This document shows, piece by piece, positions 18,165 to 58,971 of a stretch of DNA of 64,000 bases. Both the position numbers and the translations under genes were made by a program. Each line of letters begins with the position of its first letter. Position 1 is the first letter of the stretch. Origin of the DNA: an uncultured Gammaproteobacteria bacterium. GTDB lineage: Bacteria > Patescibacteriota > Microgenomatia > CAYQLK01. The notes beneath the pieces were generated by a model. It had not been told where the DNA came from. It saw only the letters and a list, made by a program, of their open reading frames with translations, and searched no databases. The stretch is from positions 52 through 64,051 of the forward strand of contig CAYGIG010000001.1 in assembly GCA_964349875.1 (NCBI GenBank), read 5' to 3'.

Positions 18165-18257
<93 letters not shown>

Positions 18258-27280: not shown

Positions 27281-27297
27281 GGTCTCCTTAGAGTGTC

Positions 27298-27387: not shown

Positions 27388-27421
27388 AAGTGTGGTATTT
27401 TAGCAGAAGCCGTAAACCAAA

Positions 27422-28347: not shown

Positions 28348-28361
28348 CAATTATTACTTAA

Positions 28362-38237: not shown

Positions 38238-38240
38238 AAC

Positions 38241-38576
38241 ATGACAGACCAACTTAAACAAATTGCTCTCACTCTCGGCGATGTCAACGTCGACAACCCA
38301 ATCGGCTATAACCAATCCGGTCAGGCGTATAACGTCGGCACCTTAATCACTGCGGCCATGCTTGTTGTGATTTTTCCGTTTGCATTTTTGGTTTCAATAA
38401 TCCTCATCGCAATCGGTGGATTAAGAATCATTATGAGCCAGGGCAACCCAGGCGCAGTCTCAGGCGGACGATCAATGATAATCAACTCAGTCATTGGGCT
38501 TGTAATCATCTCAATTGCCTGGGCTGTTACTTCATTCGTCTCCACCAACCTACTTAACGTCAACGTAATCGGATAA
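38241..38576 (+). CDS. VirB2/TrbC-type T4SS pilin-like protein (paralog 2)
   Basis: TM1 LITAAMLVVIFPFAFLVSIILIAIGG, loop IIMSQGNPGAVSGGRSM, TM2 IINSVIGLVIISIAWAV. Confidence 0.65.
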   Translation: MTDQLKQIALTLGDVNVDNPIGYNQSGQAYNVGTLITAAMLVVIFPFAFLVSIILIAIGGLRIIMSQGNPGAVSGGRSMIINSVIGLVIISIAWAVTSFVSTNLLNVNVIG

Positions 38577-38577
38577 C

Positions 38578-38898
38578 ATGCAGGATTCCGCTAAATATTT
38601 AGCTCAAAACATAAGTATAAAAGAGTTGTTTCAACCCGCCAAAAGCGGAAAATTCGATAACGTGGGAGATCTTGGTTCTTTTATTTTTCAAATATTGCTT
38701 TATTTTGGCGTAATTCTCGCTGTGATTTTTATTATTATCGGCGGATACAAATTTATAACCTCCGGAGGCGACCCCGCAAAAGCTGCTGGCGCCAAAAGTA
38801 CACTTATTTATGCAATTGTTGGCCTTATTCTAATGTTCTTCTCTATTGTGATAATGTATGTAGTACAAGCCACTTTTATTAACAACGCCAAATTGTAA
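38578..38898 (+). CDS. VirB2/TrbC-type T4SS pilin-like protein (paralog 3)
   Basis: ITSGGDPAKAAGAKSTLIYAIVGLILMFFS loop and TM2. Start 2 nt after the previous stop. Confidence 0.65.
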   Translation: MQDSAKYLAQNISIKELFQPAKSGKFDNVGDLGSFIFQILLYFGVILAVIFIIIGGYKFITSGGDPAKAAGAKSTLIYAIVGLILMFFSIVIMYVVQATFINNAKL

Positions 38899-38899
38899 T

Positions 38900-39355
38900 A
38901 TGTCCAAAGTCAAATCGGCCATTATCACGGCAATATTTACGATCATCAATCTTTCAGGTTTTTTCCCTTTACTTGGCGTATCAAAAGCTCTGGCAGGCCC
39001 AACCGATGGAACTGATGGGGGTGGTAGTGGTGGAATTTCAGGAGAAAATAATCCATTAGGAGCAATAAGAGGTCCAAGCGGAGTTCCTACCGAACCAGGC
39101 TCCCTTGTTTCTATCATTAATTTATTAATAAAAGGTTTGATGGGAATTGGTTTTTTATTAGCTTTTATTTACTTACTTCTTGCAGGAATTAGCTATATTA
39201 CTAGTAACGGAGAACCTGCCAAAACCGCCGCAGCTCAGAAAAAAATCATCTACGCCATTATTGGAATGGTTGTTATTGGACTATCTTTTGCGGTCCTTTC
39301 ACTAATCGAAACAATATTCGGAATACCGGTTACAAGTCCGGAGCTTCCATTCTAA
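38900..39355 (+). CDS. VirB2/TrbC-type T4SS pilin-like protein (paralog 4) with Gly-rich insert
   Basis: ITSNGEPAKTAAAQKKIIYAIIGMVVIGLS, plus a flexible GPTDGTDGGGSGGISGENNPLG segment. Confidence 0.6.
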   Translation: MSKVKSAIITAIFTIINLSGFFPLLGVSKALAGPTDGTDGGGSGGISGENNPLGAIRGPSGVPTEPGSLVSIINLLIKGLMGIGFLLAFIYLLLAGISYITSNGEPAKTAAAQKKIIYAIIGMVVIGLSFAVLSLIETIFGIPVTSPELPF

Positions 39356-39424
39356 AACCTTGAAAGGGGGTGAGTTGTTATAAAAAAATTAATCGCCTTA
39401 TCATCTTCGATTGCCGGAACTTTA

Positions 39425-39763
39425 TTGACCTCAACATTTGCACTTGCTGACGAAATTAACGTAAACCCTTACGGAGTTAACGTCGCTGAACCTGGCCAAA
39501 TCTTAAGTTTCGTAATCAAAGCAATTATTTTTGCTGCGTTCCTTATCGCTTTCATCTGGCTGTTAATCGGTGGTATCAAATGGATCCTTAGTAGCGGAGA
39601 TCCAGGAAAAGTTGCTGCTGCCAGAAGCCAAGTAATTCACTCACTCGTTGGTTTAGTAGTTGTAGTTCTAGCTTTAGCTTTAATTATGCTTGTCCAACAG
39701 ATACTTGGAGTCAGTATTATTACTGGAGATTCATTTACCATTCCAACAATTGGAGGTAACTAG
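39425..39763 (+). CDS. VirB2/TrbC-type T4SS pilin-like protein (paralog 5); the signal peptide appears to be encoded upstream from ~39374 without a canonical start codon
   Basis: ILSSGDPGKVAAARSQVIHSLVGLVVVVLA. The in-frame upstream sequence after the TGA at 39371 reads VVIKKLIALSSSIAGTLLTSTFALA/DE, a textbook signal peptide. Only GTT/ATA/TTG codons are available as starts. Confidence 0.55.
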   Translation: MTSTFALADEINVNPYGVNVAEPGQILSFVIKAIIFAAFLIAFIWLLIGGIKWILSSGDPGKVAAARSQVIHSLVGLVVVVLALALIMLVQQILGVSIITGDSFTIPTIGGN

Positions 39764-39961
39764 GTTTTGGGTATCGTTAAACGCATACCTTGTAGCTTTT
39801 GTTTGAAAAAAAGTGGAAGATCTGTCCTTTTTCGAAGAACAATTAAGCGAGAACTTAAATTTCTAGTTCTTGAATAATATCGATTGCCGGAGAATGTATC
39901 CAGCAATCGATATTTCAAGTTTTAAACAAATTACTGTTATTATTTAGTTAATAGTCAAGAT

Positions 39962-40345
39962 ATGCCCAAATACCTCAAAATAATCTCAGCCTTCATTGCC
40001 ATAAACATCGGTTCTTCCACTGCGGTTTTTGCTGACGGAGAACCGCCGCAGATTGTGCAGCTTACAGAATTGATCAGCAAAATTATTGGATTTATCGCAC
40101 CAATTGCCGGTATTGGTTTCTTTCTAATACTTGTCTACGCAGGCTATTTGTACATCTTTTCTTTTGGTGATCCAGGCAAAGCCGGCAAGGCTCGAAGTGC
40201 CATGCTAACAGCCGTTATCGGTCTTGTCGTCTTGGTACTAATCTATTTAGTTTATGTCGCAATTGGGCTAATGACCGGCTGTAATGTACTTGAACTAAAC
40301 TTCAACAACCCTGACTCGGTTTGTCCAAGTAATACCGGGTCATAA
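39962..40345 (+). CDS. VirB2/TrbC-type T4SS pilin-like protein (paralog 6)
   Basis: Signal peptide, then IFSFGDPGKAGKARSAMLTAVIGLVVLVL. C-terminal Cys pair (GCN...VCPSN). Confidence 0.6.
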   Translation: MPKYLKIISAFIAINIGSSTAVFADGEPPQIVQLTELISKIIGFIAPIAGIGFFLILVYAGYLYIFSFGDPGKAGKARSAMLTAVIGLVVLVLIYLVYVAIGLMTGCNVLELNFNNPDSVCPSNTGS

Positions 40346-43305: not shown

Positions 43306-46131
43306 CTACAAATCCTTCTTTATCTGATCTTTACTCTGATTAAACAAGGTTTTTATCCAAAATACTGGCACATTCAATAATAAATTCTTCGGAGAAAGCA
43401 CCTCCCTTGCAAAAGCCTTAGTAATCTCCGCCGGCCTACTAACAAAAGTACGCTTCACTTTACCGCCATAAAGTTCTTTAAGTAATTGGTCCATTTCACT
43501 CTTACCAAGATAAACCGGCACTTGCTTGAGCAAATAGTCCTCAACTCTTCTCGGCCCCCATCTGCCATACTGCGGCTTATTATCTCCTTTAACATTTATT
43601 ACTCCGTTTACACTCATCTTATGTACCATCAATGCCTGCAATACACGCCTATTAAATTCGCGCCGGTCATCAGGTGATTTTGCAAAATAGCTATCCATTA
43701 GTGCTTTGGCTCCCTCTTCTGTCGGGCTCATTTCAAACGCTTCTAACTTACCGTACATGTCGTTAGTTTCAGTTGCTGCCGCGTCTTTATAAACATCATC
43801 TTTAAGATTGGTCACAATATTTGTATTCCTTTTTATTTTCTCTCCGAAATCGTCAATATTTTTAAACTCTTCAAGACTGCTCGAACCAAACAAGGCCATT
43901 AACTTTTCGGATGGATCTGTATATTTGTAAAATCCGTCTCTTAAAAATATGTGTTCAAAAATCGCCTGGTTCTCAAAATTAACCTTATTTCCCCCAGCCT
44001 CGATCATCCACTGCGGAAAGCGATCCTTAATTAGCGCATTGTCCTTGTAATTACCCGCAAAAATGTAATTTCTGTCATTAAAATATTTACCAGCCTTTCC
44101 CTTTGTTCCTTCGTCTCCAGGTTTTGGCGCCACCTTGATTGGCTCGATGACAATTGGCGCAATTGTCGTTTCGTAAAAATCTCTAGCAACAGCCATTCTC
44201 TGCTCAAAGGCAATTTTATTTGCTGAATACTCATTCGAGCCTTTAATTTTATCCGTCAACGCCTCCTTTTTTGCAGAATCACTATCATCGATCTCAAAAC
44301 CGTTTATCTCCGCAAACTTTGCTCTATATACACCGTTTTCCAAAAATTTTGCGTTCAACTTACTCTTTACAAAAACCTCTTTCATTTGCTGTTTAAATTT
44401 AAAACCCACTGTCCAATTATCCTGATGAGCGTCCTCAAAACCACTTTGCTCATCTGAACTCAATGCTACATATTGTGCCTGCAAATCATCGTCAACAAAA
44501 ACCCTGCCCTCATTGCCTAAAACAGTTTCATTTTTTAACCTGCTTCTTACTTCTTCTTCCGATTTTAATTCTGGAGCATTATTAATAGCCTTAAATACCG
44601 CAGAGTCTGCTTGATATCTCGCCAAAACCATCTTTCTTACAGCTTCCCCTTCCGCACCACCCAATATATCAACCAAAGCTTCGTAATTAAGTGTGCTAGA
44701 TAACGCTTCAGAAACCTCCTTGGCACCCCTGCCTTTAGCGGCGACAGCGAAATTATGCATTCTCCTTAAAGCTTCATATTCTCGTTTAAATTGATCTATG
44801 TCTGGTGAGAACGTTTGTCTAGTATCTGGATCAAGCTCGTCAAATCGGCGGATTTTATCACTATTAGCCGGAATTTCGCTGGGCTTTTCCAAATCCTGCA
44901 ACGCTCGTAATTTAATAATCTCCAACGGATTAAATGCCTCAATTGCACTACTAACTTCCAATCTTGCTTTTTCCAAAACAATATCTAAAGCATCTGCTCT
45001 CAAATCAAGCTCCTGTCTTTCTTCAACCTTCTTAACTTCCTTCTCTCTTAATCCTTGAATTGCACCAGACAGATCGTTAAATCTATTTAAAAGTTCCTCT
45101 TTGTTTATTCTGATACTGTCCGTTGCACGAATAGTCTCAATAATTCTTTTCTCCTGGTCTTTAATCCTGGTATAAATCCTGTCTCTATCTGTTCTATAAG
45201 CATCTTTACTACTCTCAGTTTCAAGTGTTGTCGTAAGTGCTTCCGAAATTTCATCGAGTTCAGCCAATTCAGTAACTGAGGCGGCCCCACTACTCTTTCT
45301 CTCCTCAAGCTCTTTCTTTCTTCCCAACTTACTGACACTTTTTTCGGCCGTGGGTTTGGACTCCGATTCTGCTGTAGGAGGCTTTGCTCCAAAAGCAGCA
45401 AAGGCGCCTTCTCGGTCACGAGTATTTAGTAATTGTTCAAAAAAATTAGCCGTCACCTCCATATCTCCACCAAGCTCTTCAGCTTTGGCTCTAATAGCTT
45501 CACTTGTAATACCTTCCGCCTGAAATCTCGCAAACAACCTCGCCGCTCGCTCTTCCGGACTATCGGTACCGTCAGAACCACCAGCATCAGTACCACCTGA
45601 ATCGCCCGAGTCCGCCGAATCATCAAAATTGTCGAAGTCGCTTGCAAAATAAGCTTGACTTATATCGTTTATTGCCTCATCCCTACTTCTTAACAGATCA
45701 AACCTATAGCTACCCCCGTCGATAAAAGAGGCATATTTAACTCCGTCATTTCCGACTACTATTGACTGTATTCTTTTTGGTTTGGCCCATATAAAAACTC
45801 CGCTGGTTCCGTTCTTATCCACCGCAACAACCAAATCCCCCACTTTAAAAGGGGAAGGATCATCATCCTCATTTTCATTCTTGGAAGTTTTTTCATCATC
45901 GCCCGTATCTTTCAAAATACTCGGATCTTGTCGCTCTCCAGGATTACTTGCGTCACGTCCGTCAAGCTCCTTCTCAAAAAAGTTTGCCGCGGCCTCTATG
46001 TCTCCATGAAACTCATCAGCTTTTGCTCTAATTTCGTCCGAAGTTATACCTGCCGCGCGGATTCTCGCAAACAACTCATTTGCTCTCTTTTGTGGATCTT
46101 CTAAAATAGAATCTTCTCTCTGTTCTGCCAT
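43306..46131 (-). CDS. large acidic hypothetical protein (941 aa) with two ~40-aa UBA-like internal repeats, embedded antisense in the T4SS-like locus
   Basis: Repeat 1 ELFARIRAAGITSDEIRAKADEFHGDIEAAANFFEKEL. Repeat 2 ARLFARFQAEGITSEAIRAKAEELGGDMEVTANFFEQLL. Asp/Glu-rich linkers (DSADSGDSGGTDAGGSDGTD). No Walker, HUH or TM motifs seen. Confidence 0.5.
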   Translation of the reverse strand: MAEQREDSILEDPQKRANELFARIRAAGITSDEIRAKADEFHGDIEAAANFFEKELDGRDASNPGERQDPSILKDTGDDEKTSKNENEDDDPSPFKVGDLVVAVDKNGTSGVFIWAKPKRIQSIVVGNDGVKYASFIDGGSYRFDLLRSRDEAINDISQAYFASDFDNFDDSADSGDSGGTDAGGSDGTDSPEERAARLFARFQAEGITSEAIRAKAEELGGDMEVTANFFEQLLNTRDREGAFAAFGAKPPTAESESKPTAEKSVSKLGRKKELEERKSSGAASVTELAELDEISEALTTTLETESSKDAYRTDRDRIYTRIKDQEKRIIETIRATDSIRINKEELLNRFNDLSGAIQGLREKEVKKVEERQELDLRADALDIVLEKARLEVSSAIEAFNPLEIIKLRALQDLEKPSEIPANSDKIRRFDELDPDTRQTFSPDIDQFKREYEALRRMHNFAVAAKGRGAKEVSEALSSTLNYEALVDILGGAEGEAVRKMVLARYQADSAVFKAINNAPELKSEEEVRSRLKNETVLGNEGRVFVDDDLQAQYVALSSDEQSGFEDAHQDNWTVGFKFKQQMKEVFVKSKLNAKFLENGVYRAKFAEINGFEIDDSDSAKKEALTDKIKGSNEYSANKIAFEQRMAVARDFYETTIAPIVIEPIKVAPKPGDEGTKGKAGKYFNDRNYIFAGNYKDNALIKDRFPQWMIEAGGNKVNFENQAIFEHIFLRDGFYKYTDPSEKLMALFGSSSLEEFKNIDDFGEKIKRNTNIVTNLKDDVYKDAAATETNDMYGKLEAFEMSPTEEGAKALMDSYFAKSPDDRREFNRRVLQALMVHKMSVNGVINVKGDNKPQYGRWGPRRVEDYLLKQVPVYLGKSEMDQLLKELYGGKVKRTFVSRPAEITKAFAREVLSPKNLLLNVPVFWIKTLFNQSKDQIKKDL

Positions 46132-46384: not shown

Positions 46385-48409
46385 ATGGAAGAGCATGCTG
46401 TACCGCAGAACATAACTAATTTTGAGTTCAAACTTTTTGGCCCTTTTACCATCCATCAATTCATTTATGTTGCCATAGGCGGCATTATCGGAGCTGTTTT
46501 TTATTTTTCACCGCTTCCAAAAGGCATTGCTTATATTCTTGGTGGAATTGCTGTTTTTGGAGGTATCGGGTTTGCTGCCATCCCTTTGCAGGGCAGGTCT
46601 CTAGATAAATGGATTATCGCTTTCTTTCGCTCAATTACTCACCCAACCCAGCGAATTTGGATTAAAGATAATCACATTCCATATTTTCTCGAAACCAGCT
46701 TTCTGCAAACCACCCCTCAACCTACAACTACCCAGCCTCTTGCCTCGCCGCGCCTTAATCATGCTGATTTACAAACACTTTTAGCCAAGCAACGCCGCAC
46801 CACAAACGATAATCCCTTCGATCAAAAAGAAAGTCAGTTTTTGAGTCAAATTTTAAGTCTTAACTCGACCGTTAAAGCTACAGCCGCACCACCACCCCAA
46901 AATCAACAAGCCAATCAATCCCCATTCTCTCCATTCCAAAAACCTTATCGAACTTCGCGTCCAATTATTCAAGCCACTCCTAAGCCGGCCCAGCTTTTAG
47001 TGCGGGAACAGGAGATAAAAGCACAAGAACTAGCTTTGGCTGAAAAACAGAAGGAATTAGAAGCAACCAAGCTCAAACTCGAAGCTGAAAAGCAAAAAAA
47101 ACTTGAACTTCTAACTCAAAAACCTACCATTCAGGCGCACGCAATCGGCAACTTAGAGATTCAAAAACGTCCTGAACCATCTCCAGCTTCTACTCCGATC
47201 ATAAAATTCTCCGACTATCCGGAAAGCCTTAATCCTGATCGCGAGATCAAAGTTCTGCCTTACAACCCAATCACTGCCCCTGCTGGATCCACAGCTCCTC
47301 AAAATCCTCACACGGACCACACCGCAACCGACCAGGCCTCTAAACAAAGGCTGGCCGAGCTTGATAAAGTTCTTCTGGCCCAGCAAAAGATCGAGGCTGA
47401 GATAAAAGCCAAAGAAGAAGAAATTAAGCATCAGCAAACAAAAATTCAGCAGGAAGAAGAAAAGTTCACTCAAGCATGGAAAGATTTCGAAAAAACCAAA
47501 AGCCTGATCGAAGGAGGGGTTGATACCTCCACACCTGACGCGCTGTCTAGACACATGCTTACAAATATTGGCAAAAAAACCACTGTTGCACCAATGCCGT
47601 CATCAAACTTCTCATCTCTTTACAGCACCCAGCCAATCGCCGCTCAAATAGCTTCAGACATAAATTTCGGCGGTAATGTAATTGCCATCCCCGGCATTAA
47701 AGTACAATTTCTTCAAGGCATTGGAGACACTAGAATCAGAAAACTTCGTTCCAGACCGCCTGATTTTTCAAAAGCAACCCTGCCAATTCTCGGAGAAAGA
47801 CAGTTTGATATCAGCAAAGAACTGAAAAAACGCTACGAACAACCCTCAGAATCCACAGCCGTCAAAACCGCACCAGCAACGGGAATTTCTATTGAACAAA
47901 TAAAAAAAGTCGGCGACTTTCAACCAGTCAGGGCAGGAGAAATAAAAGAGCACGAGAGTAAAAACTTTACCCCGCCTCCAAGCCCTAATATTCACCCCAA
48001 ACCAGAAAAACAATCTAAAACACAGGAGAATGTTGAACACACCCCCGCCCAGCGACCTAAACACGGCCAAATAGTCCAACCCTTTAACTACCAAAAAGAG
48101 ACTTCAAATACCGCCCCAAAAGCCGAAGTCAAAATCAACCTTTCCGAACATTCCAACACTCCCAACGGTATTGTTTACAATAGCCAGGGCGGGCTGATCC
48201 AGGGAGCACTAATCTCTGTATTTGATCGTGACGGGGTTCCTGTTAGGGCTTTCAAAACTAACGGTCTTGGTCAGTTCGTCTCCGTCACACCACTGCCTGA
48301 TGGACACTATACGATTCAGACAGAATTTAACGGTTTAAACTTTGATACAATTGCCTTCGATGCAGAAGGAAAGCTTCTTGATCCATTTGCTATAACTGCT
48401 AAAAACTAA
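46385..48409 (+). CDS. PrgI/VirB3-like membrane hairpin fused to coiled-coil, Pro/Gln-rich linker and C-terminal carboxypeptidase-regulatory-like beta-sandwich domain
   Basis: N-terminus FEFKLFGPFTIHQFIYVAIGGIIGAVFYFSPLPKGIAYILGGIAVFGGIGFAAIPLQGRSLDKWIIAFF is a two-TM hairpin like PrgI/TcpE/VirB3 analogues upstream of VirB4. Then a heptad region (KELEATKLKLEAEKQKKLE). C-terminus GIVYNSQGGLIQGALISVFDRDGVPVRAFKTNGLGQFVSVTPLPDGHYTIQTEFNG is CarboxypepD_reg-like. Confidence 0.55.
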   Translation: MEEHAVPQNITNFEFKLFGPFTIHQFIYVAIGGIIGAVFYFSPLPKGIAYILGGIAVFGGIGFAAIPLQGRSLDKWIIAFFRSITHPTQRIWIKDNHIPYFLETSFLQTTPQPTTTQPLASPRLNHADLQTLLAKQRRTTNDNPFDQKESQFLSQILSLNSTVKATAAPPPQNQQANQSPFSPFQKPYRTSRPIIQATPKPAQLLVREQEIKAQELALAEKQKELEATKLKLEAEKQKKLELLTQKPTIQAHAIGNLEIQKRPEPSPASTPIIKFSDYPESLNPDREIKVLPYNPITAPAGSTAPQNPHTDHTATDQASKQRLAELDKVLLAQQKIEAEIKAKEEEIKHQQTKIQQEEEKFTQAWKDFEKTKSLIEGGVDTSTPDALSRHMLTNIGKKTTVAPMPSSNFSSLYSTQPIAAQIASDINFGGNVIAIPGIKVQFLQGIGDTRIRKLRSRPPDFSKATLPILGERQFDISKELKKRYEQPSESTAVKTAPATGISIEQIKKVGDFQPVRAGEIKEHESKNFTPPPSPNIHPKPEKQSKTQENVEHTPAQRPKHGQIVQPFNYQKETSNTAPKAEVKINLSEHSNTPNGIVYNSQGGLIQGALISVFDRDGVPVRAFKTNGLGQFVSVTPLPDGHYTIQTEFNGLNFDTIAFDAEGKLLDPFAITAKN

Positions 48410-48411: not shown

Positions 48412-49443
48412 ATGAAATCTGCCCCGATCAAATCATCAACTCAAGACCATCTAGATATCGCAGACATTCGCGATGATGTTGTTATACTTAAAGATAATTC
48501 CGCCGCAATCGTTATTCAAACAGCGGCCATAAATTTTGAACTGCTCTCCGAGTCTGAACAGGATTCAATTATTTATTCATACGCCGGACTATTAAACTCA
48601 CTTAACTTCACCACACAAATCGTTGTACGCAGTAAAAAAATCGATCTTAGTAATTATTTACAGCTGATCTCAGACGCAGAATCCCATCAGGCTAACCCTG
48701 ATATCAAGCGCCAGATCTATCAGTACCGGCAGTTTATTCAGACGATTGTTCAGCAAAATAACGTCTTAGAGAAAAAATTCTACGTGGTTGTTCCTTTTAA
48801 TCCACTCGAGTTAGGCGTCAAGGGCGCAGCTTTAGGCAAAGTTCAAAAAGACACAACACACCTTCAGGGTTTTATTGATTTGGTCAAAACCAGTCTTTAT
48901 CCAAAACGAGACCATTTGATCAAACAGTTTGCTCGTCTAGGAGTTAAATCCAAACAATTAACCACTCAGGAGTTAATAGAGCTGTATTTTGATATTTACA
49001 ATCCAAGCGAGGTCGGATTGCAAAAAATCACCGAAGCTGCAGGATCATACACCTCCCCAATGGTCTCACCGGCCGTAGCTGCTCCAAATCTCGCAGATCC
49101 AAGCACAAACGACTTAGCTCCGATCGTACCGACTACATCAAACCTTGCCCAATCGGGTCCAAACCTTGAATTACAACCTGCCCCTTTTGCACCTGCAGCA
49201 CCGCAAAACAACCCCACAATCTCAGCTCCGCCACCAAGTATTCAGCCGGCTACTCCCGTTGTCACCACTGAAACTCCGATCCAAAATACCAACATTCCGC
49301 CAATTCCAGATCAAACTCCGGTAAACTCATTTTCTCCCGCTGCACAAAACTCTCAAGCCCCAGAACAGCCCGAGGTAACTCCCAGCAGCAACACTCTCGA
49401 TCCTGACATTCTAAAGGCTCTCGATGCACTAAAATCGCCTTAA
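48412..49443 (+). CDS. VirB4 N-terminal-domain-like protein lacking the ATPase domain, with Pro-rich C-terminal tail
   Basis: DIADIRDDVVILKDNSAAIVIQTAAINFELLSESEQDSIIYSYAGLLNSLNFTTQIVVRS follows the N-terminal pattern of VirB4/TrbE family proteins. No Walker motifs. C-terminal ~120 aa are Pro/Ala/Thr-rich. Confidence 0.45.
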   Translation: MKSAPIKSSTQDHLDIADIRDDVVILKDNSAAIVIQTAAINFELLSESEQDSIIYSYAGLLNSLNFTTQIVVRSKKIDLSNYLQLISDAESHQANPDIKRQIYQYRQFIQTIVQQNNVLEKKFYVVVPFNPLELGVKGAALGKVQKDTTHLQGFIDLVKTSLYPKRDHLIKQFARLGVKSKQLTTQELIELYFDIYNPSEVGLQKITEAAGSYTSPMVSPAVAAPNLADPSTNDLAPIVPTTSNLAQSGPNLELQPAPFAPAAPQNNPTISAPPPSIQPATPVVTTETPIQNTNIPPIPDQTPVNSFSPAAQNSQAPEQPEVTPSSNTLDPDILKALDALKSP

Positions 49444-49465: not shown

Positions 49466-51334
49466 ATGAGTATATTCGGCAAGAAAAACAACCAAGACTC
49501 AGGCCAGACAGCACCACAGTTGGCATCTGCTCAGGCAAAAGCCGTTGCACAAGGTACGGTTTCAGTACGCGACATTATCGCCCCGCCTGCAATTGAGGTT
49601 GACTTTGACTCAATAAAAATCGGAGAAACGTACTTTAAAACACTCTTTGTTATTGGCTACCCTCGATATGTGGGTGCCAACTGGCTATCTCCGCTTATTA
49701 ACTTCAACCACACACTGGAAATATCTATGTTTCACTATCCTGTCGAAGCCCAGGCTGTTTTAGATGACATTAAGCGAAAGATCGGCGAAATGGAAGCCAC
49801 GATCTCTACCGACATCCAAAGAGGAAAAGTCGTTGACCCAAGTGTTGAGGTCGCACTCGACGACGCACGTGAATTTCAGCAGAATCTTGTCAAAGGAGCC
49901 GAAAAATTCTTCCAGTTTGGTCTTTATGTCACAGTTCCCGCCGACACCAAAGAGGAGCTTGTAAATATCACCAAACAAGTCGAGAGCCTGCTTGGCTCTA
50001 TTATGGTCATCTCCAAACACGCAACACTACAGCAAGAAGACGGATTCCGTACCACACTGCCTTACGGTCACGACAAAATGCTTGTGACCAGAAACATGGA
50101 CACAACCTCGCTGGCCACAACTTTTCCGTTTACTTCCAGCTCGCTTACCAGCAATGAAGGAATTATGTATGGTATCAACGAGCACAACGGCTCGCTTATT
50201 ATCTTTGACCGTTTTAGTCTGGAAAATGCCAATACGGTAATTTTTGCAAAATCCGGTGGAGGAAAGTCGTATTTAACCAAACTTGAGGCTCTCCGCTCTC
50301 TAATGTTCGGAACAGAAATCATCATTATTGATCCTGAGGAAGAATATAAAAATCTCTGTACAGCAATAGGCGGCGAATATATTAGTTTTGACTTCAACTC
50401 CGACACCAAAATTAACCCATTTGATCTCTCCGGAGTTTACGAAGAAGGCGAAAACGAGCTGGGCCTCAAAATCCTTTCACTCCACGGGTTGTTCAGAGTC
50501 ATCATGGGACAGCTTTCTGCCACTGAAGATGCTATTCTCGACCGAGCCTTGGTACTCGCTTACAAGAACAAAGGCATAACCGCTGATCCTCAAACACAAA
50601 CCCTTCAACCGCCATTGATGGAAGATTTGTACAAAGCCCTAATCGGCATGGAGGAACCACAAGCACAAACTCTGGCCGAAAGGATTGAAAAATTTGTCAA
50701 AGGCTCATTGGTTGGAATTTTTGATCAATATTCCAATCTGGATATCCGAAACACATTCACTGTTTTTAGTATTAAAAATCTCGAAGCAGAACTTCGTCCT
50801 ATCGCAATGTACATCATCCTCGATTTTATTTGGACCAGAGTTAAAAGGGATCTTAAAAAGAGAATACTAATAGTCGATGAGGCTTGGTACATGATGCAAT
50901 ATCCGGACTCGGCCACTTTTATGTATTCAATTGCCAAGCGCGCCCGAAAATATTATCTCGGCCTGACCACTATCACACAGGATGTTGAAGATTTTCTCGG
51001 TACTGAGTACGGCAAAGCCATCGTTACAAACTCCAGTTTGCAGATTTTACTCAAACAATCTCCCGCAGCAATCGACAAACTCGCCGAAGTCTTTTATCTC
51101 TCAGAAGGAGAAAAACATCTGCTTTTGGCCGCAGATGTTGGAGAAGGGTTGTTTTTTGCAGGCAGCTCCCATGTCGCTATGCGTGTAATTGGCTCTCCAG
51201 AGGAACACCAACTTGTTACCAGCAACCCCAAAGAAGTACTTGAAATGCAAAACCAGGCTGAAGCCGAACAGGCAAACATTGATAGAGACAGCTCTCAAGC
51301 ACAAGCCTCTGATCAAACTCAGGAAATCATCTAA
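49466..51334 (+). CDS. virB4: VirB4/TraC/CagE-family T4SS ATPase (Gram-positive-type, PrgJ/TcpF/ConE-like)
   Basis: N-terminal KTLFVIGYPRYVGANWLSPLINF. Walker A FAKSGGGKSY. Walker B ILIVDEAWYMM. LGLTTITQDVEDF C-terminal motif. 622 aa. Confidence 0.85.
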   Translation: MSIFGKKNNQDSGQTAPQLASAQAKAVAQGTVSVRDIIAPPAIEVDFDSIKIGETYFKTLFVIGYPRYVGANWLSPLINFNHTLEISMFHYPVEAQAVLDDIKRKIGEMEATISTDIQRGKVVDPSVEVALDDAREFQQNLVKGAEKFFQFGLYVTVPADTKEELVNITKQVESLLGSIMVISKHATLQQEDGFRTTLPYGHDKMLVTRNMDTTSLATTFPFTSSSLTSNEGIMYGINEHNGSLIIFDRFSLENANTVIFAKSGGGKSYLTKLEALRSLMFGTEIIIIDPEEEYKNLCTAIGGEYISFDFNSDTKINPFDLSGVYEEGENELGLKILSLHGLFRVIMGQLSATEDAILDRALVLAYKNKGITADPQTQTLQPPLMEDLYKALIGMEEPQAQTLAERIEKFVKGSLVGIFDQYSNLDIRNTFTVFSIKNLEAELRPIAMYIILDFIWTRVKRDLKKRILIVDEAWYMMQYPDSATFMYSIAKRARKYYLGLTTITQDVEDFLGTEYGKAIVTNSSLQILLKQSPAAIDKLAEVFYLSEGEKHLLLAADVGEGLFFAGSSHVAMRVIGSPEEHQLVTSNPKEVLEMQNQAEAEQANIDRDSSQAQASDQTQEII

Positions 51335-51389: not shown

Positions 51390-54300
51390 ATGCCTCAACA
51401 GACAGCCGAACAAACCAAACCCAAAAACGCCCTTGATCAACTTCTTCAATTCCGGCTGGCCGATTGGGCTTTGGAATTTTTTGAAACATCAAGCTCAGAA
51501 CAAAACCCGCCGCGCTTCCCAACCCCTGAAGAATTTAATCAAAAATTTCACGATTTATTTCCGGATGCCGACTATCAGCAAACACTTATTGTTATCCAAA
51601 ATATCGCTGATAAATATCACGTTAACGATATTGGTCAGAACATTATTCTGTTAAGGCAAATTTTTGCAGGTCTAATAAAAAACGACCTTGAAGAATTAGA
51701 AATCTCAACCGAAACTTCAACTCCTATCATTCAAAAAACAAAGGGAGAACAAAAAACCCTTCCAAAAAGCGGGCTGGCAGTGCTTGAAGAGGTCGATTCA
51801 ATCATTGAAAAACTTCGACAGACTCGCACTGAAGAGACTTTGCCTCCGGCAGTGGAGCTGCCTGAAACATTAAAGATCCCCACTCCGCAAGCCCAGCCGG
51901 CTTCTTTCCAAACTGCTGATTTGCCCGCGTCACCACGGCCCATCCAGTCAGACTCAAACATCAACAAACCACAACTTACGCTCCCAAACGACTTTAAAAC
52001 ACAAACCACACCGGCTTCAATTGCCGAGTCCGATATCGCACCCACGACTAAAAGACTCGAAGGCACGGTCAACCTTACTCATACCGAACTTCAAACTGCA
52101 GTTAAAAACCTTATTCTCTCTCCGGTCGTCGCCGCAAATATCTTTTCCCGTCAAATTGATAAACCAAACCAAGAAAGAATAGCTGCCAACATTGCCAAGG
52201 CCGTGGCAACACGAATTGTCTACACCACCCACACCGCAGACTTTCAAGAACTTTCACCAGTTTTAGCTTCAGAAATCTACGAATCTGCCACACAAGACCC
52301 CTTAACAGCTCCGAGTTCCGGAAAACTACTAAAATCTGAAGATTTCCTGCAAGCTGTCGATACTATTTCCGAAAACAACTTTCCGGCAATTTCTCAAGCC
52401 AACGTTGCTTCCCAAATTCTCCTAATCAGCACACTTACAGACTCTAAAAATGCACCAGCTGTACACAGCGAAATCATTAATAAAGCAGTCACAACCAGCT
52501 TAAAAATTAATCCCGCCAAAAATACCGCCAAAAACAAGCTCACTATAACCACAGCAGTTCAGCAAGTGTATCTTCCGGCAATCGCAGTAAGGGTTTTATC
52601 AAAAACCAAAGAAGATCTTGATAAAAATATCCCTCTCGAACCAAAACGCTTCCTCCAAAATCTCGACACGGCTCAAGAACAAAGTTTTCAGTCTTTCTTA
52701 AAACATTTAGACAATAAGCTCGAAGACAAAACCATCATTGCCGAAGCAATACCCAGGTTTGTAATCGATACGGTCTCACAAGAAATCCTTAAACCTGTAA
52801 ATGTTTACGCCCAAGGACAGAGATCAATTAATACGCCAGAAGCCGAGGCTGCCGAAAACCACGCCTTTGCATCACTCATGTCCAACCCCAAAAGACAACA
52901 GGAAAGCTATCAGGATTTTTTGGTTGAGTCTCTGCACCCAAACCCGCAGAGATATTCTGTGCTTCACGAAAGCGTTCGAGAGTTCGGCAACAGGGAATCA
53001 AAAAGTCTTGGTCAGACAATATTGCTCGCGAATTACACAAGCGAAATGGATCTATATGAACAAATTCCTCAATTTAAAAACCCTGCTCGCAGGTCGATTT
53101 GGAGAATGGGCGGGTTTTCGCGCAGTTATTATTCTCAAAGCCCCGCGGGCCAAGCAGTTACAAGATCGGTCAATTTTGTGCCTAAAAAATCGTATTTCAA
53201 GTTTTCTCAAAAATTCTCATCCGGCAGAGCAAAGGGTGCTCTAAAAGCATTTGCTAAAAAAGGGGCTGGTAAGGTCGCCGCAAAAGTGGGTATTTCAGTC
53301 GCAGTCGGAGCAGCAACCGGCGGCACGTCATTGCTCTTACAGGCAGCAATTATGCTCGCTCTAAAATTCAAAAAACAAATTGCCAAAATTCTTGGAGTCC
53401 TAATTGCTTTACAAATATTGTTTTTGCTTTGGCTTTTAACGCAAGCCGCTGCTTTTGTTATGGGGGCACTCGTTGGAGCCACAATAGGCTTTGCTCTTGG
53501 CGGACCAATTGGAGCAATGGTAGGCGGATTTTTGGGCGGCACAGCTTCAGTTTGGTTGTACAGCCATTTCCCTCCTTATGCAGCGTTTGTTGACAATGTC
53601 TTACTTAATCTACCTAAACTTTGGAGTGCTGTTACAGCGCCAATAGGATGGGCAGCCTCAGCATTTGGAGCAATAAGCGCGACAGCCTCATTTGTTGGTG
53701 GCGCAGCGGGAGCAACTGCTTCTTTTATTGGTGGCGGGGCCTCGTTTGTTGGTGGATTATTAACAGGAGGAGGTGGCGGCAGCGCAATTGTCTCAACACT
53801 CGCAAGCCCAGGCGTACTCATTCCCACAGCCACCGTCGGAGGGCTCGCCGCTTTTTCTGTCCTTAGTTACAACCTGTTAGCTTCAGCTTTATACACTAAC
53901 CCCAGTCTTCCGGAGCAAATTGTCCTTCCGGGCGATGCCACTGAAGGAGAAACAACAAACACATATATTTCGATTCAAAAATTGGCCTCTGTAAATGCAA
54001 AATCTCTCGGACCAGCCAAAACTATCAACCTTGAAAACTTCGACCTGCCCCAAACCGTGACTTACTCAGTCAGCATCACTGCAGGCGCGCAACCCGTTTA
54101 CAACATAACTTGTACAGATGCTATTACTCACACCACTAAATCAGGCTCGGTCAGAAATCTTACAAGCCCGGCAATTAACTGCCCAACCTCTTTAGCTCCG
54201 AATCAATCAGAGCTGATAACATACAACTTAAATCTAGCCTCTGATCCCATCTTTTATGACTCCAGTATAAATAATAAGTTTTCGATTAATTTCAAATCTT

Positions 54301-54872
54301 TTGACCCTGATGTCACTCCTATTCCTGATGTCAGCGGTGGTTTTATCAACTCCGTTTCAAGCCAAGCTAATGACTTAGCGGCAGTATTTATTGGCACTCC
54401 AGCCAGTGAGTGTCCGTCCGGATGGCCGGTAGCAGGCACTGGGCGCGTAACCCAGGGTCCTGGTGGTAATATTTCCCACCAATCACTTGAGGCTGTTGAT
54501 ATTGCCACTTTTTACACCGACAGCCTTTTGGCCAGCTTTAACGGTGTAGTTCAATACAAATACACCGACCCCGACGGAAATCATCCGATCACCGGAAGGA
54601 CTGGATACACTGTGATCTTAAACGGAACCTGCAATGGTGTACCATTTCAGGTAATTTACGGCCACATGGATTCTTTTGGAGCCGGTATCGAAGTCGGGTC
54701 TGTTGTGACAAAAGGGCAGGTAATTGGCTACGAAGGATATACTGGATATATCCTTCCTCCAGACATTAGAGGAACACATCTGCATTACGAATTCCGCGGT
54801 TTGAGAATGGAACCGCCTTTTATACCTGAAGATGTGCGTGATTGCTCAGGAAATTGTGCAACCGTAAACTAA
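51390..54872 (+). CDS. giant (1160 aa) membrane protein with central Gly/Ala-rich TM cluster and C-terminal M23 (LytM) peptidoglycan endopeptidase domain; candidate T4SS cell-wall hydrolase (VirB1/PrgK/CwlT analogue)
   Basis: C-terminus GNISHQSLEAVDIAT ... GHMDSFGAGIEVGSVVTKGQVIGYEGYTGYILPPDIRGTHLHYEF carries the M23 HxxxD and HxH motifs. Residues ~620-800 hold 5-6 TM helices with GGAAGATASFIGGGASFVGGLLTGGGGG. Confidence 0.6.
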   Translation: MPQQTAEQTKPKNALDQLLQFRLADWALEFFETSSSEQNPPRFPTPEEFNQKFHDLFPDADYQQTLIVIQNIADKYHVNDIGQNIILLRQIFAGLIKNDLEELEISTETSTPIIQKTKGEQKTLPKSGLAVLEEVDSIIEKLRQTRTEETLPPAVELPETLKIPTPQAQPASFQTADLPASPRPIQSDSNINKPQLTLPNDFKTQTTPASIAESDIAPTTKRLEGTVNLTHTELQTAVKNLILSPVVAANIFSRQIDKPNQERIAANIAKAVATRIVYTTHTADFQELSPVLASEIYESATQDPLTAPSSGKLLKSEDFLQAVDTISENNFPAISQANVASQILLISTLTDSKNAPAVHSEIINKAVTTSLKINPAKNTAKNKLTITTAVQQVYLPAIAVRVLSKTKEDLDKNIPLEPKRFLQNLDTAQEQSFQSFLKHLDNKLEDKTIIAEAIPRFVIDTVSQEILKPVNVYAQGQRSINTPEAEAAENHAFASLMSNPKRQQESYQDFLVESLHPNPQRYSVLHESVREFGNRESKSLGQTILLANYTSEMDLYEQIPQFKNPARRSIWRMGGFSRSYYSQSPAGQAVTRSVNFVPKKSYFKFSQKFSSGRAKGALKAFAKKGAGKVAAKVGISVAVGAATGGTSLLLQAAIMLALKFKKQIAKILGVLIALQILFLLWLLTQAAAFVMGALVGATIGFALGGPIGAMVGGFLGGTASVWLYSHFPPYAAFVDNVLLNLPKLWSAVTAPIGWAASAFGAISATASFVGGAAGATASFIGGGASFVGGLLTGGGGGSAIVSTLASPGVLIPTATVGGLAAFSVLSYNLLASALYTNPSLPEQIVLPGDATEGETTNTYISIQKLASVNAKSLGPAKTINLENFDLPQTVTYSVSITAGAQPVYNITCTDAITHTTKSGSVRNLTSPAINCPTSLAPNQSELITYNLNLASDPIFYDSSINNKFSINFKSFDPDVTPIPDVSGGFINSVSSQANDLAAVFIGTPASECPSGWPVAGTGRVTQGPGGNISHQSLEAVDIATFYTDSLLASFNGVVQYKYTDPDGNHPITGRTGYTVILNGTCNGVPFQVIYGHMDSFGAGIEVGSVVTKGQVIGYEGYTGYILPPDIRGTHLHYEFRGLRMEPPFIPEDVRDCSGNCATVN

Positions 54873-54874
54873 AA

Positions 54875-55897
54875 ATGACACTAACGGACCTAAAATCAAA
54901 ATTATCAAAATATTGGATCTTTATTTTCTTCGGCGGCTTTTTTCTTGTGTTCATTCTTCTCTACCTAGCTCTCAACCCATCCAAAACACCTACTACTCCA
55001 ACAGGCTCCAAAACCGTCATTCCTGCTGAATCTAGGCCTGGCGCCGATCCGTTCGTTTCCAAACCTAAAAAATATCAAATTGCAACCAGCATTGGTTCGT
55101 TCTCTATACCCACACAAGCCTCCAATCTGTCCGTTAATAATACTCCTATTGATTCAACCAAAATTGCACAAGTGTTTAACTTTGACCCAACCAACTTTAA
55201 AGAACTGCCGACTGATCTGGGGGTTAGAAAGGTTTTTATTGACCAAAACAGGACGCTAACCATCGACAGTCTCACTATCACCTATCGCAACCCCCAAACC
55301 CAAACGGGTTCGGTTCAATTGGACGTAATCAAATCTCAAGCGGAAAATACTCTCCGATCCGTATCTATAAATAATGAATTATCTCTTTCTGGGCCGGAAT
55401 TTCATCTATCGACAAACCAAACCGACAAAGCCGTTGCACAATTTGAAGATGGTGACACTATCACTTACAAAATTCTTATTTCAGTAAATAGTTTACCTGT
55501 TGGCACTGACCGCACACCAGACACCTCAGTTGGCGTTATCACCCTCGATCATTCAGGAGAAGTTATCAGTTTTAGCCTTATCACTTCAAACTATTCTGTA
55601 AAGGACCCTATAAATATTATTTCTACTCAAACAGCTATCACTAAACTCACCAACAACCAATCGGTCGTTCTTCAGGTTAAAAAACTCTCAGGCACAAAGA
55701 CCGAAGAAGAATCCTATTATGTTACTAATTACAAAGACATTAATATTGATTCAGTCAAAGTCGCTTATTTCTTTCCGACGACCAAAAACTCGCAAACTAT
55801 TTTCCCTTTTTATATTTTTTCGGGCACTGCAACTTCAAATGAAAACCAGCAATACAGAATATCTCTAGCTGTTGAGGCGGTTGCGTCTTCCAATTAG
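54875..55897 (+). CDS. membrane-anchored exported protein, last gene of the T4SS-like locus (VirB8-like candidate; topology only)
   Basis: Start moved to the ATG at 54875. N-terminal TM IFIFFGGFFLVFILLYLAL, then a ~300-aa Thr/Ser-rich beta-rich domain. Confidence 0.4.
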   Translation: MTLTDLKSKLSKYWIFIFFGGFFLVFILLYLALNPSKTPTTPTGSKTVIPAESRPGADPFVSKPKKYQIATSIGSFSIPTQASNLSVNNTPIDSTKIAQVFNFDPTNFKELPTDLGVRKVFIDQNRTLTIDSLTITYRNPQTQTGSVQLDVIKSQAENTLRSVSINNELSLSGPEFHLSTNQTDKAVAQFEDGDTITYKILISVNSLPVGTDRTPDTSVGVITLDHSGEVISFSLITSNYSVKDPINIISTQTAITKLTNNQSVVLQVKKLSGTKTEEESYYVTNYKDINIDSVKVAYFFPTTKNSQTIFPFYIFSGTATSNENQQYRISLAVEAVASSN

Positions 55898-56232: not shown

Positions 56233-57363
56233 TTACTCTTGAAGCCGAACAGGCATAATAATATGCATAAATTCAACCCCTGTCTCGTTTTTCTCTAGAG
56301 TGAACTTTCCTGGTTTTAGGCTCTCTAATATCTCCAGAGTAAACTTTTCAGACTCACATATTCCCAAGAAATCATTTAAGTACCGCCAATTAAAAGCGAT
56401 TTCGCCGGACGGGCCGGATAATTCACCCTCAATTTCATTCTTTTCCTCTCCAATTTCCCTCGAAACCGAAGAGACCAGCAAACCAAGACCGTCACCCAGT
56501 CCAAGCCTGACCACATTTCCGGACTCTTTTGCAAAAACCGCTGCCTGGGTTAATGCCCGCGCGAACTCATCTTTAGCTACGGAAATACTTGTACTAAAAC
56601 TGTCAGGAACTATTTTTCTCCAGTTTGGATATTCTCCTTCAATTATTCTTGAAACTATTTTAACTTCTCCAGCTTTAAACACAGCTTGTTTGTCATTTTC
56701 TGATAACCACACCCCTATTTCATCATTCTGGCCGGCCAGTTTTGACACCTCTTGTAGGGTCCGTGCCGGAATTACAGTTCTTATTGGTTTTGTTGCAAAT
56801 TCGCCGCTAAACATTGCATGCGAAAGTCGATAACCATCGGTTGCAACTAATTCAAGTCCTTTTTCGCTCAAATCAAACAAGACTCCTGCCAAAATCGGCC
56901 TGGATTCATCCACCGCAGCCGCAAATTCAACTTTATCTATTGCGTATGAAAAGGTCTTCGCTGGTATTTTTACACGTGCTTCACCCACCTCTGTCGGTAT
57001 TACCGGGAAATCCTCTGTTGGGGCGGTATTTAATTTTGCTGCAAACTTACCCGAAACCAAACTTCCGATTCCATCAATGATCTCCAAGCTTAATGTTCCG
57101 GGATTTAATGTAGATACTAGGTCACTCAGTATTTTCCCTGGAACCGCTATTTTTCCTATATATGTTTCTGTAGCTGTAAGTGTGACTGAAATTGCAATAT
57201 CGAGATTTGTCGATGAAACAGTAATTTTTCCTTCATATACCTCTATAAGAAAATTACTAAGGATCGGCAAGGTGATTCTTGTACTTATTGCCCTAATTAC
57301 CAACTGAAGGGCCTTGCTGAATTCTTCTTGTTTTACTGAAAAACCGATTTTTTTGTCAGACAT
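56233..57363 (-). CDS. dnaN: DNA polymerase III beta subunit (sliding clamp)
   Basis: 376 aa. Three-domain beta-clamp pattern. Immediately downstream of dnaA. Confidence 0.9.
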   Translation of the reverse strand: MSDKKIGFSVKQEEFSKALQLVIRAISTRITLPILSNFLIEVYEGKITVSSTNLDIAISVTLTATETYIGKIAVPGKILSDLVSTLNPGTLSLEIIDGIGSLVSGKFAAKLNTAPTEDFPVIPTEVGEARVKIPAKTFSYAIDKVEFAAAVDESRPILAGVLFDLSEKGLELVATDGYRLSHAMFSGEFATKPIRTVIPARTLQEVSKLAGQNDEIGVWLSENDKQAVFKAGEVKIVSRIIEGEYPNWRKIVPDSFSTSISVAKDEFARALTQAAVFAKESGNVVRLGLGDGLGLLVSSVSREIGEEKNEIEGELSGPSGEIAFNWRYLNDFLGICESEKFTLEILESLKPGKFTLEKNETGVEFMHIIMPVRLQE

Positions 57364-57606: not shown

Positions 57607-58971
57607 TTAAACAGCATTATTAATTTCTAATATCAATTCTCTCAGAATAATGTTCGTCTTAAGGCTCGACTTTATCTTTCCAACCCCATGCATAATTGTA
57701 GTGTGATCGCGCCCACCCAGAGCATCACCGATTGAAACCAGAGAAAACTTAAACTCTTCCCTCAACAAGTACATTACTATTTGTCTGGCTAAGACTAGCT
57801 CTTTTTGCCGGTTCTTACTTAAAATATCGCCTGTAGAAATTTTTGTTTTCTGGCCGACAACAGAAATCACCCTCCTTGGTGTAATCGGTTTTGCTCGCTT
57901 GTTTTCGCTTTGGATCCCAAAGAATTTTTTAACGATATCCACGTCAATTTCCTGGCCTCTGAGTGAGGCTAAAGAAATGATACCTGTCAACACTCCTTCT
58001 AACTCTCTGGTGTTTTTATCCACTTTTGAAGCAATGATATCCACAATTTCAGGCAGCAAATTAATATTTTTGGCTTTAATTTTTTGGTTTATTATGGCCA
58101 CCCTCATTTCGAAGTCCGGATTGCCAATATCGACCGTTAATCCTCCTAAAAATCTAGAGACCAGCCTGTCTTCAATTTTCCCCAAAGAAGACGGGTGTCT
58201 ATCAGAGGTCATGATGATTTGTTTTCCGCTTCCCTGTAATTCGTTAAATGTATGAAAGAACTCTTCTTGTGTAGACTCTTTACCGCTCAAGAACTGTATG
58301 TCGTCTATTAGTAAAATGTCGGTCCTGCGAAATTTTTCCCGAAAACCCCTTGAATTTTTAGAAGAGATTGACTCAATGAATTCGTTAGTAAACTTTTCAC
58401 ATGTTGTATAAATAACCCTGATTGAAGAGTCTTTCTCTAACACCCCATTAGCTACAGCTTCCATTAAATGCGTCTTTCCTACCCCAACACCGCCATAGAT
58501 AAAAAACGGGTTATATACACTGCCGGGGCTTTGAGACACTGCCTGAGCCGCGGCAAACGCCAAATTATTTGAGTTGCCGACTACAAATTTTTCAAACGTG
58601 AAATTAGGATTTAAATTATTAGAGCTTCCCCATCCGATTTTTATTTCACTAATAGTTTTCTGTTCGTTAAAAACATTTTCTTTCGTCATTAATTCTTGTT
58701 TTGGCCTATCTACCTCTCCAACCTCGACAATAAGCCTAAATTCAGCCAGATCAGCTTTTTGCTCAAGATGCTGTCTGATACTGTCCAAATATCTTGCCTG
58801 TACCTGCTCTTTTACGAAATTATTTAAAACAACTACTTTAAACTGGGGATTCTTTTCTTCGCTGTTAATTTCAAGCTTGGTGGCACTAAACCATGTACGA
58901 AAATTTGCCGGCGACAAGTCAGACTTAATGTCTTTTAATATTTCACTCCAAAGTTTTTTTGAATCAACCAT
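57607..58971 (-). CDS. dnaA: chromosomal replication initiator DnaA
   Basis: Walker A GGVGVGKTHL. Box VII and sensor motifs. C-terminal DNA-binding HTH ...ALGGRDHTTIMHGVGKI. Confidence 0.95.
   Translation of the reverse strand: MVDSKKLWSEILKDIKSDLSPANFRTWFSATKLEINSEEKNPQFKVVVLNNFVKEQVQARYLDSIRQHLEQKADLAEFRLIVEVGEVDRPKQELMTKENVFNEQKTISEIKIGWGSSNNLNPNFTFEKFVVGNSNNLAFAAAQAVSQSPGSVYNPFFIYGGVGVGKTHLMEAVANGVLEKDSSIRVIYTTCEKFTNEFIESISSKNSRGFREKFRRTDILLIDDIQFLSGKESTQEEFFHTFNELQGSGKQIIMTSDRHPSSLGKIEDRLVSRFLGGLTVDIGNPDFEMRVAIINQKIKAKNINLLPEIVDIIASKVDKNTRELEGVLTGIISLASLRGQEIDVDIVKKFFGIQSENKRAKPITPRRVISVVGQKTKISTGDILSKNRQKELVLARQIVMYLLREEFKFSLVSIGDALGGRDHTTIMHGVGKIKSSLKTNIILRELILEINNAV

Follow-up and report, generated by a model that had tools for sequence, protein, structure and literature searches.

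TrsD of the Staphylococcus aureus plasmids pSK41 and pGO1 and TraD of pIP501 are proteins of Gram-positive conjugation systems that possess a soluble core of ~200 aa without NTP-binding motifs. In pSK41 the gene order is trsC, trsD (227 aa) and trsE (672 aa). According to a recent survey (Quinonero-Coronel et al. 2025, PMC12102498), TrsD is remotely homologous to the N-terminus of the VirB4 ATPase and is the most abundant component of type IV secretion systems (T4SSs) in Patescibacteria, with 2,272 homologues, 1,664 of which are associated with virB4. Here we describe a gene of this kind, ORF1, which lies upstream of a VirB4 gene, ORF2, in a 64-kb stretch of contig CAYGIG010000001.1 (the whole stretch is referred to below as the window). 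We consider it probable, at roughly 0.8, that ORF1 is a Patescibacteria homologue of TrsD/TraD, that is, the first N-terminal subdomain of VirB4 (N1, ~200 aa) made as a separate polypeptide, the VirB4 encoded directly after it beginning with the second subdomain (N2). This identity is proposed because of the family matches, the complementary mapping of the two proteins on full-length VirB4, a natural fusion, the conserved PrgI(VirB3)-TrsD-VirB4 gene order and the literature.

The same survey lists TrsD as essential in Ca. S. epibionticum ML1 and states that Patescibacteria T4SSs are often found near dnaA. The main text of Guglielmini et al. 2014 (PMC4027160), cited there for the homology between TrsD and VirB4, does not contain the word TrsD. 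In the R388 system, the N-terminal domain of VirB4 (residues 15-400 of TrwK) is wrapped by VirB3 and mediates VirB4-VirB4 dimer contacts (PMC9259494). The proteins called 'TraD' in the papers on pELF and pNP40 are unrelated and were set aside.

The features on which the comparison is based are the following:

48412..49443, forward strand: ORF1, TrsD/TraD-family ('TraC-like') gene, 343 aa, ATG to TAA (ORF call, NCBIfam, hhalign)
48412..49026, forward strand: conserved globular core of ORF1, residues 1-205
49027..49440, forward strand: Pro/Ala/Thr/Ser-rich disordered tail of ORF1, residues 206-343, 138 aa (composition, AlphaFold2)
49402..49431, forward strand: short predicted helix closing the tail, residues 331-340, DILKALDALK (AlphaFold2, block pLDDT 76)
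49466..51334, forward strand: ORF2, VirB4 ATPase with a short N-terminus, 622 aa, made up of N2 and the C-terminal P-loop domain

ORF1 shares with TrsD and TraD the ~200-aa soluble core devoid of NTP-binding motifs and, as in pSK41, its gene is located between a gene for a VirB3-like protein (trsC in the plasmid, PrgI here) and that for a short VirB4 of ~620-670 aa (trsE in the plasmid). Unlike the genes of pSK41, pGO1 and pIP501, however, it is chromosomal and belongs to a relaxase-poor Patescibacteria T4SS. It further differs from the 227-aa TrsD of pSK41 in having an additional 138-aa tail rich in Pro, Ala and Thr, in sharing only ~19% identity with that protein and in scoring below the curated cutoff of the family. 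With the Patescibacteria TrsD homologues described in PMC12102498, ORF1 has in common the family, the adjacency to virB4, the phylum-level distribution and the proximity to dnaA; no essential difference from them is apparent and ORF1 is one more member.

Family assignment of ORF1

The ATG of ORF1 is situated 2 nt past the stop codon of the upstream PrgI-like gene, and 22 nt separate its own stop codon from the ATG of ORF2, in keeping with the original prediction, which had described an ORF immediately upstream of, and not overlapping with, the gene for the VirB4 ATPase. The absence of Walker motifs reported at the same time was also borne out: a motif search revealed no Walker A motif and a Pfam scan no P-loop domain. 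What identifies a VirB4/TraC/TrbE ATPase is a P-loop NTPase domain carrying both Walker motifs (A and B), and none of these could be assigned to ORF1; the protein has no ATPase fold, and the term pseudo-ATPase that had been proposed for it is a misnomer. In an alignment of 26 sequences all 22 invariant columns fall within residues 14-198 of ORF1. The homology to VirB4 N-termini had been suspected for the first ~140 aa, but the conserved domain actually extends over ~200-220 aa. The AlphaFold2 model calculated from the same alignment is confident for residues 20-200 (pLDDT about 80-90), where the order of the elements is beta-beta-beta-alpha-beta-alpha-alpha-beta-alpha-beta-alpha.

Residues 9-196 of ORF1 match positions 14-199 of the 201-position NCBIfam model for TrsD/TraD (NF041427; E 5e-6), which represents a Firmicutes subfamily, ORF1 being a distant relative of it. 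Two further NCBIfam models, both for full-length VirB4 proteins of monoderms, are matched by ORF1: VirB4_plasma, the model for Mbov_0397-type VirB4 (E 1.2e-7), and that for CD1110-type VirB4 (E 1.1e-4); the matched positions are listed in the following section. All three matches are sub-threshold and mutually consistent. The similarity to VirB4 N-domains on which the original prediction had staked its case is therefore detectable by profile search, and, as judged from these matches, which concern about the first 130-170 residues of the monoderm VirB4 models, ORF1 is a homologue of the subdomain with which full-length VirB4 begins. When the profile of the ORF1 family was compared with the prototype TrsD of pSK41 using hhalign, columns 11-204 were aligned with residues 32-217 of 227 (probability 90.6%, E 1.3e-6), a nearly full-length alignment that points to homology across the whole core. 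An even higher probability (97.9%, E 4e-13) was obtained for a 257-aa 'TraC family protein' encoded by Clostridium botulinum plasmid pCBG, and a tblastn search recovered a Bacillus cereus gene annotated as TrsD.

Searches for homologues of ORF1 in a large protein collection returned 1244 clusters, most of them with a precomputed match to PF26593 ('TraC-like'); this family is listed for homologues that are 40-88% identical to ORF1, some of the matches being flagged 'weak'. Those clusters that carry a name all belong to Candidatus Curtissbacteria, Roizmanbacteria or 'Patescibacteria group', and the lengths of the homologues range from 207 to 418 aa, albeit the shortest ones are possibly partial. 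An exhaustive representative search with the ORF1 family yielded 3230 clusters (50% identity, E <= 0.001). The closest homologues are found in Curtissbacteria, Gottesmanbacteria and other Microgenomates metagenome-assembled genomes (MAGs).

It might be argued that ORF1 is an operon-specific protein with a different fold, the likeness of which to VirB4 has arisen by chance or through composition. Each individual match of ORF1 to the VirB4 models is indeed below the curated cutoff. In addition, a Pfam-A scan of ORF1 and four homologues with a library lacking PF26593 produced just a sub-threshold match to TraC_F_IV (E 0.17 for ORF1), and a search of PDB sequences with the ORF1 family profile retrieved low-complexity noise and nothing else. 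Nevertheless, judging from the agreement of the profile matches, the resemblance of ORF1 to VirB4 N-termini exceeds chance, and we regard an unrelated origin as highly improbable.

Complementary mapping on full-length VirB4

ORF2 has Pfam matches to P-loop_TraG, AAA_10 and DUF87, a Walker A motif (AKSGGGKS) at residue 261 and a Walker B motif (ILIVDE) at residue 467; its match to the CD1110 VirB4 model is highly significant (E 9e-121). ORF1 and ORF2 occupy adjacent positions on complete VirB4 proteins and models:

CD1110-type VirB4 model (752 positions): ORF1 at 13-139, ORF2 at 176-733
Mbov_0397-type VirB4 model, VirB4_plasma (894 positions): ORF1 at 103-233, ORF2 at 292-876
Ruminococcus albus VirB4 (949 aa): ORF1 at 187-356 (E 2.6e-4, probability 42%), ORF2 at 378-943 (E 3.5e-58)
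Natural fusion P0291 (787 aa): ORF1 at 1-203 (48% identity), ORF2 at 213-777 (70% identity)

Since the two proteins fall on neighbouring and non-overlapping segments of VirB4, ORF2 lacks the segment that is supplied by ORF1. Comparison with TrwK is consistent with this arrangement. Position 257 of the ORF2 profile aligns with TrwK residue 446, which sets the start of ORF2 near TrwK residue 190, so that ~190 N-terminal residues of TrwK are missing from ORF2. Given the extent of the TrwK N-terminal domain, ORF2 holds just the second half of it, and the core of ORF1 (~190-200 residues) equals the missing first half in size. Unlike in full-length VirB4 proteins such as TrwK of R388, the first half of the N-terminal domain is here a separate polypeptide.

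The fusion protein P0291 was obtained from the exhaustive representative search and belongs to a related bacterium. It contains residues 1-201 of ORF1 and residues 38-605 of ORF2, joined by a linker of nine residues. The protein is present in at least two independent samples (loci L006 and L007) with the same synteny, consisting of the genes for PrgI, the fusion, an M23 protein, a 332-aa ORF and dnaN; in L006 dnaA comes next after dnaN, while the L007 sequence stops within the dnaN-side ORF.

On these alignments, ORF1 and ORF2 are a stably split VirB4 rather than a VirB4 accompanied by an extra paralog. The original prediction had put forward both possibilities. It favoured an additional paralog beside a complete VirB4, which is contradicted by the complementary coordinates on the CD1110 model, R. 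albus VirB4 and P0291, and mentioned a split virB4 as an alternative, which the same mapping supports. The statement that the downstream VirB4 retains its own N-domain holds for the second half of that domain but not for the first ~190 TrwK-equivalent residues, which are absent.

The reading of ORF1 as a duplicated VirB4 N-domain that acts as an accessory scaffold beside a self-sufficient VirB4 can draw on some resemblance to the N-terminus of ORF2. In the AlphaFold2 models residues 43-180 of ORF2 (modelled with low confidence) follow the same order of secondary structure elements as the ORF1 core. The pairwise alignment of the two proteins, which had been proposed as a check, gave a mixed answer: BLASTP (best E 2.2) and a shallow profile-profile comparison (probability 0.3%) found no match, whereas hhalign with deeper alignments (268 and 125 sequences) produced a weak collinear match between ORF1 9-193 and ORF2 17-221 (score 30.3, P 9e-4). 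With the alignment reversed the score dropped to 10.8, and the best of 120 shuffles of columns or blocks stayed at 22.1. These observations are a weak hint that N1 and N2 go back to an ancient tandem duplication of a single alpha/beta module within VirB4. The resemblance between ORF1 and the ORF2 N-terminus noticed originally may be a trace of such a duplication, which, if true, would amount to a 'paralogy' inside every VirB4 and be nothing special to the present locus. Relative to all references tested (CD1110, VirB4_plasma, TraC-F, VirB4_CagE and TrwK), however, the ORF2 N-terminus is ~170-190 residues short, and ORF1 falls exactly on the missing segment and not on the part retained by ORF2. 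Furthermore, P0291 and full-length VirB4 proteins carry both segments in tandem, so any duplication has to be older than the split and internal to VirB4. An extra paralog is already largely refuted by the complementary coordinates and we consider it unlikely.

Conservation of the split arrangement

In order to find out how widespread the two-gene form is, 80 species-representative genomes retrieved with the ORF1 family alignment were inspected. In 78 of the 80 a TrsD-like ORF (217-418 aa, median 290) is followed directly by a VirB4 gene (median 620 aa), and in the remaining two the contig ends. No fused TrsD-VirB4 was found among the 80 genomes, and a PrgI-like ORF precedes the TrsD-like ORF in at least 62 of the 80 loci. 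The three-gene order also occurs in pSK41, in a B. cereus plasmid (TrsD of 345 aa, TrsE of 627 aa) and in C. botulinum pCBG.

The original prediction had also considered that ORF1 might be a remnant of virB4 and had called for a search for a frameshift joining the two ORFs, as would be expected if one virB4 had been broken by an indel in the present genome, either recently, by pseudogenization, or through an assembly artefact. In favour of such an event, a gap of only 22 nt separates the ORFs, their reading frames differ, and a related lineage has the fused protein of 787 aa. The conservation data refute it, and it has practically no chance of being correct: the two-gene form of nearly all of the sampled species genomes and of the Firmicutes plasmids is not that of a remnant, and close relatives (63-88% identity) keep both the full 343-aa ORF with its tail and a VirB4 of ~620 aa. 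No evidence for a frameshift was found in the sequence either. The frame of ORF2 contains three stop codons in the 140 nt before its ATG, no slippery motif was seen by eye, and nothing in the nine-residue linker of P0291 corresponds to the tail of 138 aa. In a scan for promoters and terminators, promoter-like sites were not enriched, nor was a convincing terminator detected internally, between the genes.

The VirB3-VirB4 fusions of some diderm T4SSs, mentioned in PMC12102498, illustrate that evolution can shift the borders separating VirB3 from the N-terminus of VirB4 and the latter from the rest of VirB4, within a single co-assembling module. That is the opposite event, a fusion and not a split, and involves a different partner; according to the same paper, VirB3-VirB4 fusions were not found in Patescibacteria.

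Two side observations were made in the locus set. In seven loci (L015, L030, L039, L043, L046, L077 and L084) the VirB4 ORF after TrsD is 860-1035 aa long, compared to the median of 620 aa, which could reflect an over-extended start, extra domains or fusion with a downstream gene. Among loci L010-L089, many records are third-party MAG entries (TPA_asm) titled 'uncultured Gammaproteobacteria', 'Pseudomonadales' or 'Bathyarchaeia archaeon'; their PrgI-TrsD-VirB4 content at 40-67% identity to the window suggests that these titles are placeholders or misassignments.

Several points weigh against the reading of ORF1 as a TrsD/TraD homologue and detached N1. The score of ORF1 against NF041427 is 26.5 bits, far from the curated cutoff of 200, and the assignment as a whole is carried by several concordant signals of weak to moderate strength, with no single strong one among them. 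The alignment of ORF1 to a single full-length VirB4, that of R. albus, reaches a probability of only 42%. In fold searches ORF1 was ~14% identical to TrwK, the aligned TrwK residues not being reported in the output, and such model-based comparisons would not place ORF1 on TrwK residues 15-190 in preference to the similar second half. The AlphaFold2 model of ORF2 is poor (pLDDT 45.6, pTM 0.23) and usable for the order of secondary structure elements alone. The direction of evolution may have been either fission or fusion. Finally, PMC12102498 assigns TrsD no function, and the contacts among TrsD, VirB4 and PrgI are putative.

The C-terminal tail of ORF1

The Pro/Ala/Thr-rich C-terminal tail noted in the original prediction was confirmed, and covers residues 206-343 (138 aa). 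Pro accounts for 20% of it, Ala for 14%, and Thr and Ser for 10% each; together with Gln and Asn, these residues make up 69% of the tail as opposed to 35% of the core. AlphaFold2 predicts the tail to be disordered (pLDDT mostly < 50) apart from the short helix at its end. Among homologues the tail measures about 10 to 200 residues, is absent in many and cannot be aligned. Many of the long-tailed homologues close with an amphipathic helix of the type ALxxLQxAxxKA (alignment columns 401-430).

In those cases where TrsD is tail-less (about 226 aa, Gottesmanbacteria-like; L004 6684..6900 and loci L023, L031, L044, L053, L059, L062 and L066), the N-terminus of VirB4 bears a Pro/Ala-rich extension of 30-65 aa, which itself closes with a helix such as QKLAKG-VSVKD. 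Over 78 loci, the longer the tail, the shorter tends to be the low-complexity extension at the N-terminus of the VirB4 that follows (Spearman rho -0.34 at a nominal p of 0.002, with no phylogenetic correction and with VirB4 starts set at the first start codon). It seems that the low-complexity linker can be located before or after the gene break, and the negative correlation agrees with a break that occurred within a linker between domains that is free to expand.

A possible role for ORF1 in the secretion system

If ORF1 is a TrsD homologue that corresponds to N1 of VirB4, the following mechanism would be the most economical. The TrsD core would bind N2 of the short VirB4 non-covalently and thereby rebuild the complete N-terminal domain. 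This domain would in turn touch the PrgI/VirB3-like protein, the gene of which directly precedes ORF1. In this way TrsD might help to dock the VirB4 hexamer to the PrgI/VirB3-like protein and to oligomerise it, with no ATP hydrolysis by TrsD itself. This role is proposed because the corresponding domain of R388 VirB4 is the surface wrapped by VirB3 and engaged in dimer contacts (PMC9259494). The tail of ORF1 could be what remains, in expanded form, of the linker between N1 and N2, and the helix at its end a possible tether. More tentatively, the Pro-rich tail, which is variable but closes with a conserved amphipathic helix, might act as a flexible tether or as an arm that recruits some other part of the T4SS. 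A rather doubtful extension of these ideas is that the split is functional and not neutral, with the separate N1 setting the ratio of N1 to VirB4 and TrsD capping just some of the VirB4 subunits; equally tentatively, the capped subunits might be, for example, those that form the 'central' ring in the R388 machine, to which VirB3 is bound.

The surrounding T4SS operon

The other T4SS genes of the window and the replication genes next to them are the following:

37659..40345, forward strand: six tandem VirB2-like pilin paralogues (106-192 aa)
37659-38237, 38241-38576, 38578-38898, 38900-39355, 39425-39763 and 39962-40345, forward strand: the individual pilin ORFs
46385..48409, forward strand: PrgI/VirB3-like membrane protein, 674 aa (PF12666 PrgI at residues 6-91, E 4.6e-8)
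51390..54872, forward strand: large membrane protein of 1160 aa that ends in an M23 peptidase domain (PF01551 at residues 1034-1136)
54842..55897, forward strand: last operon gene, 351 aa, with an N-terminal hydrophobic segment (ORF call)
56233..57363, reverse strand: dnaN, directly downstream of the T4SS operon
57607..58971, reverse strand: dnaA, likewise

The PrgI-like product of 46385..48409 is likely the membrane partner of the VirB4 N-terminal domain. At its C-terminus a CarboxypepD_reg-like beta-sandwich was matched at residues 595-651 with 23.5 bits, which is under the Pfam cutoff. With 674 aa the protein compares to about 90-130 aa for PrgI of Firmicutes; Pro/Gln-rich and coiled-coil-like stretches lie between its two domains, and the homologue in locus L009 has the same combination. 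The M23 protein may be the cell-wall hydrolase of the system, in the role of VirB1, perhaps in combination with a channel component; related loci have an M23 protein at the equivalent position. No significant Pfam match was obtained for the product of 54842..55897, the position of which is taken by the 332-aa ORF in L006 and L007.

One of the pilin ORFs (38900-39355) matches PF18895 T4SS_pilin (E 2.1e-9), and the other five share a hydrophobic pattern, ...GG.k.i.S.GdP.K..., judged by eye. The layout of the pilin ORFs comprises an N-terminal leader followed by two hydrophobic helices around the ...S.GdP.K... motif. The cluster of six agrees with that reported from Ca. S. epibionticum, which likewise comprises six divergent pilins of the VirB2 type and in which the T4SS cluster, pilins included, is essential (Wang et al. 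2023, PMC10633639).

With PrgI, TrsD, VirB4, an M23 protein, pilins and a nearby dnaA, the locus has the content of an MPF-FATA-like chromosomal T4SS of Patescibacteria. The operon is chromosomal and Patescibacteria-derived (Microgenomatia-like). Beyond dnaN and dnaA follow yidC and then polysaccharide genes. GC skew is negative over the whole 64 kb at 2-kb resolution and does not change sign near dnaA, so that a replication origin is not evident from skew in the window. Divergently upstream of the T4SS operon lies a 941-aa ORF (43306..46131, reverse strand) with no Pfam family and a weak match to DUF6074 (E 0.002); it contains twice, near residues 18-60 and 199-240, a motif of ~45 aa (…LFARxxAxGITSxEIRAKAxExxGDxExxANFFEx…). 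Seven tRNA genes are present in the window. Among the tRNA genes, three for tRNA-Ser (cga, gga, tga) and two for tRNA-Arg (ccg, gcg) are clustered at 26083..28451 (~2.4 kb), and a fourth tRNA-Ser gene (gct) is located at 18165.

Implications for the TrsD family

The family and its relation to VirB4 have already been published, and ORF1 is an ordinary member of it. What the present locus adds is small: an explicit complementary mapping, a natural fusion, a hint that N1 and N2 are duplicates, and observations on how linker and tail behave; the mapping, the fusion and the variable tail are not spelled out in the available text of PMC12102498. If TrsD is the first half of the N-terminal domain of VirB4 in detached form, it would acquire a concrete role, that of completing the surface that binds VirB3/PrgI and oligomerises VirB4. 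For annotation, it would mean that the 'short' VirB4 proteins of such systems are not truncated and that the 'hypothetical protein' encoded upstream belongs with them.
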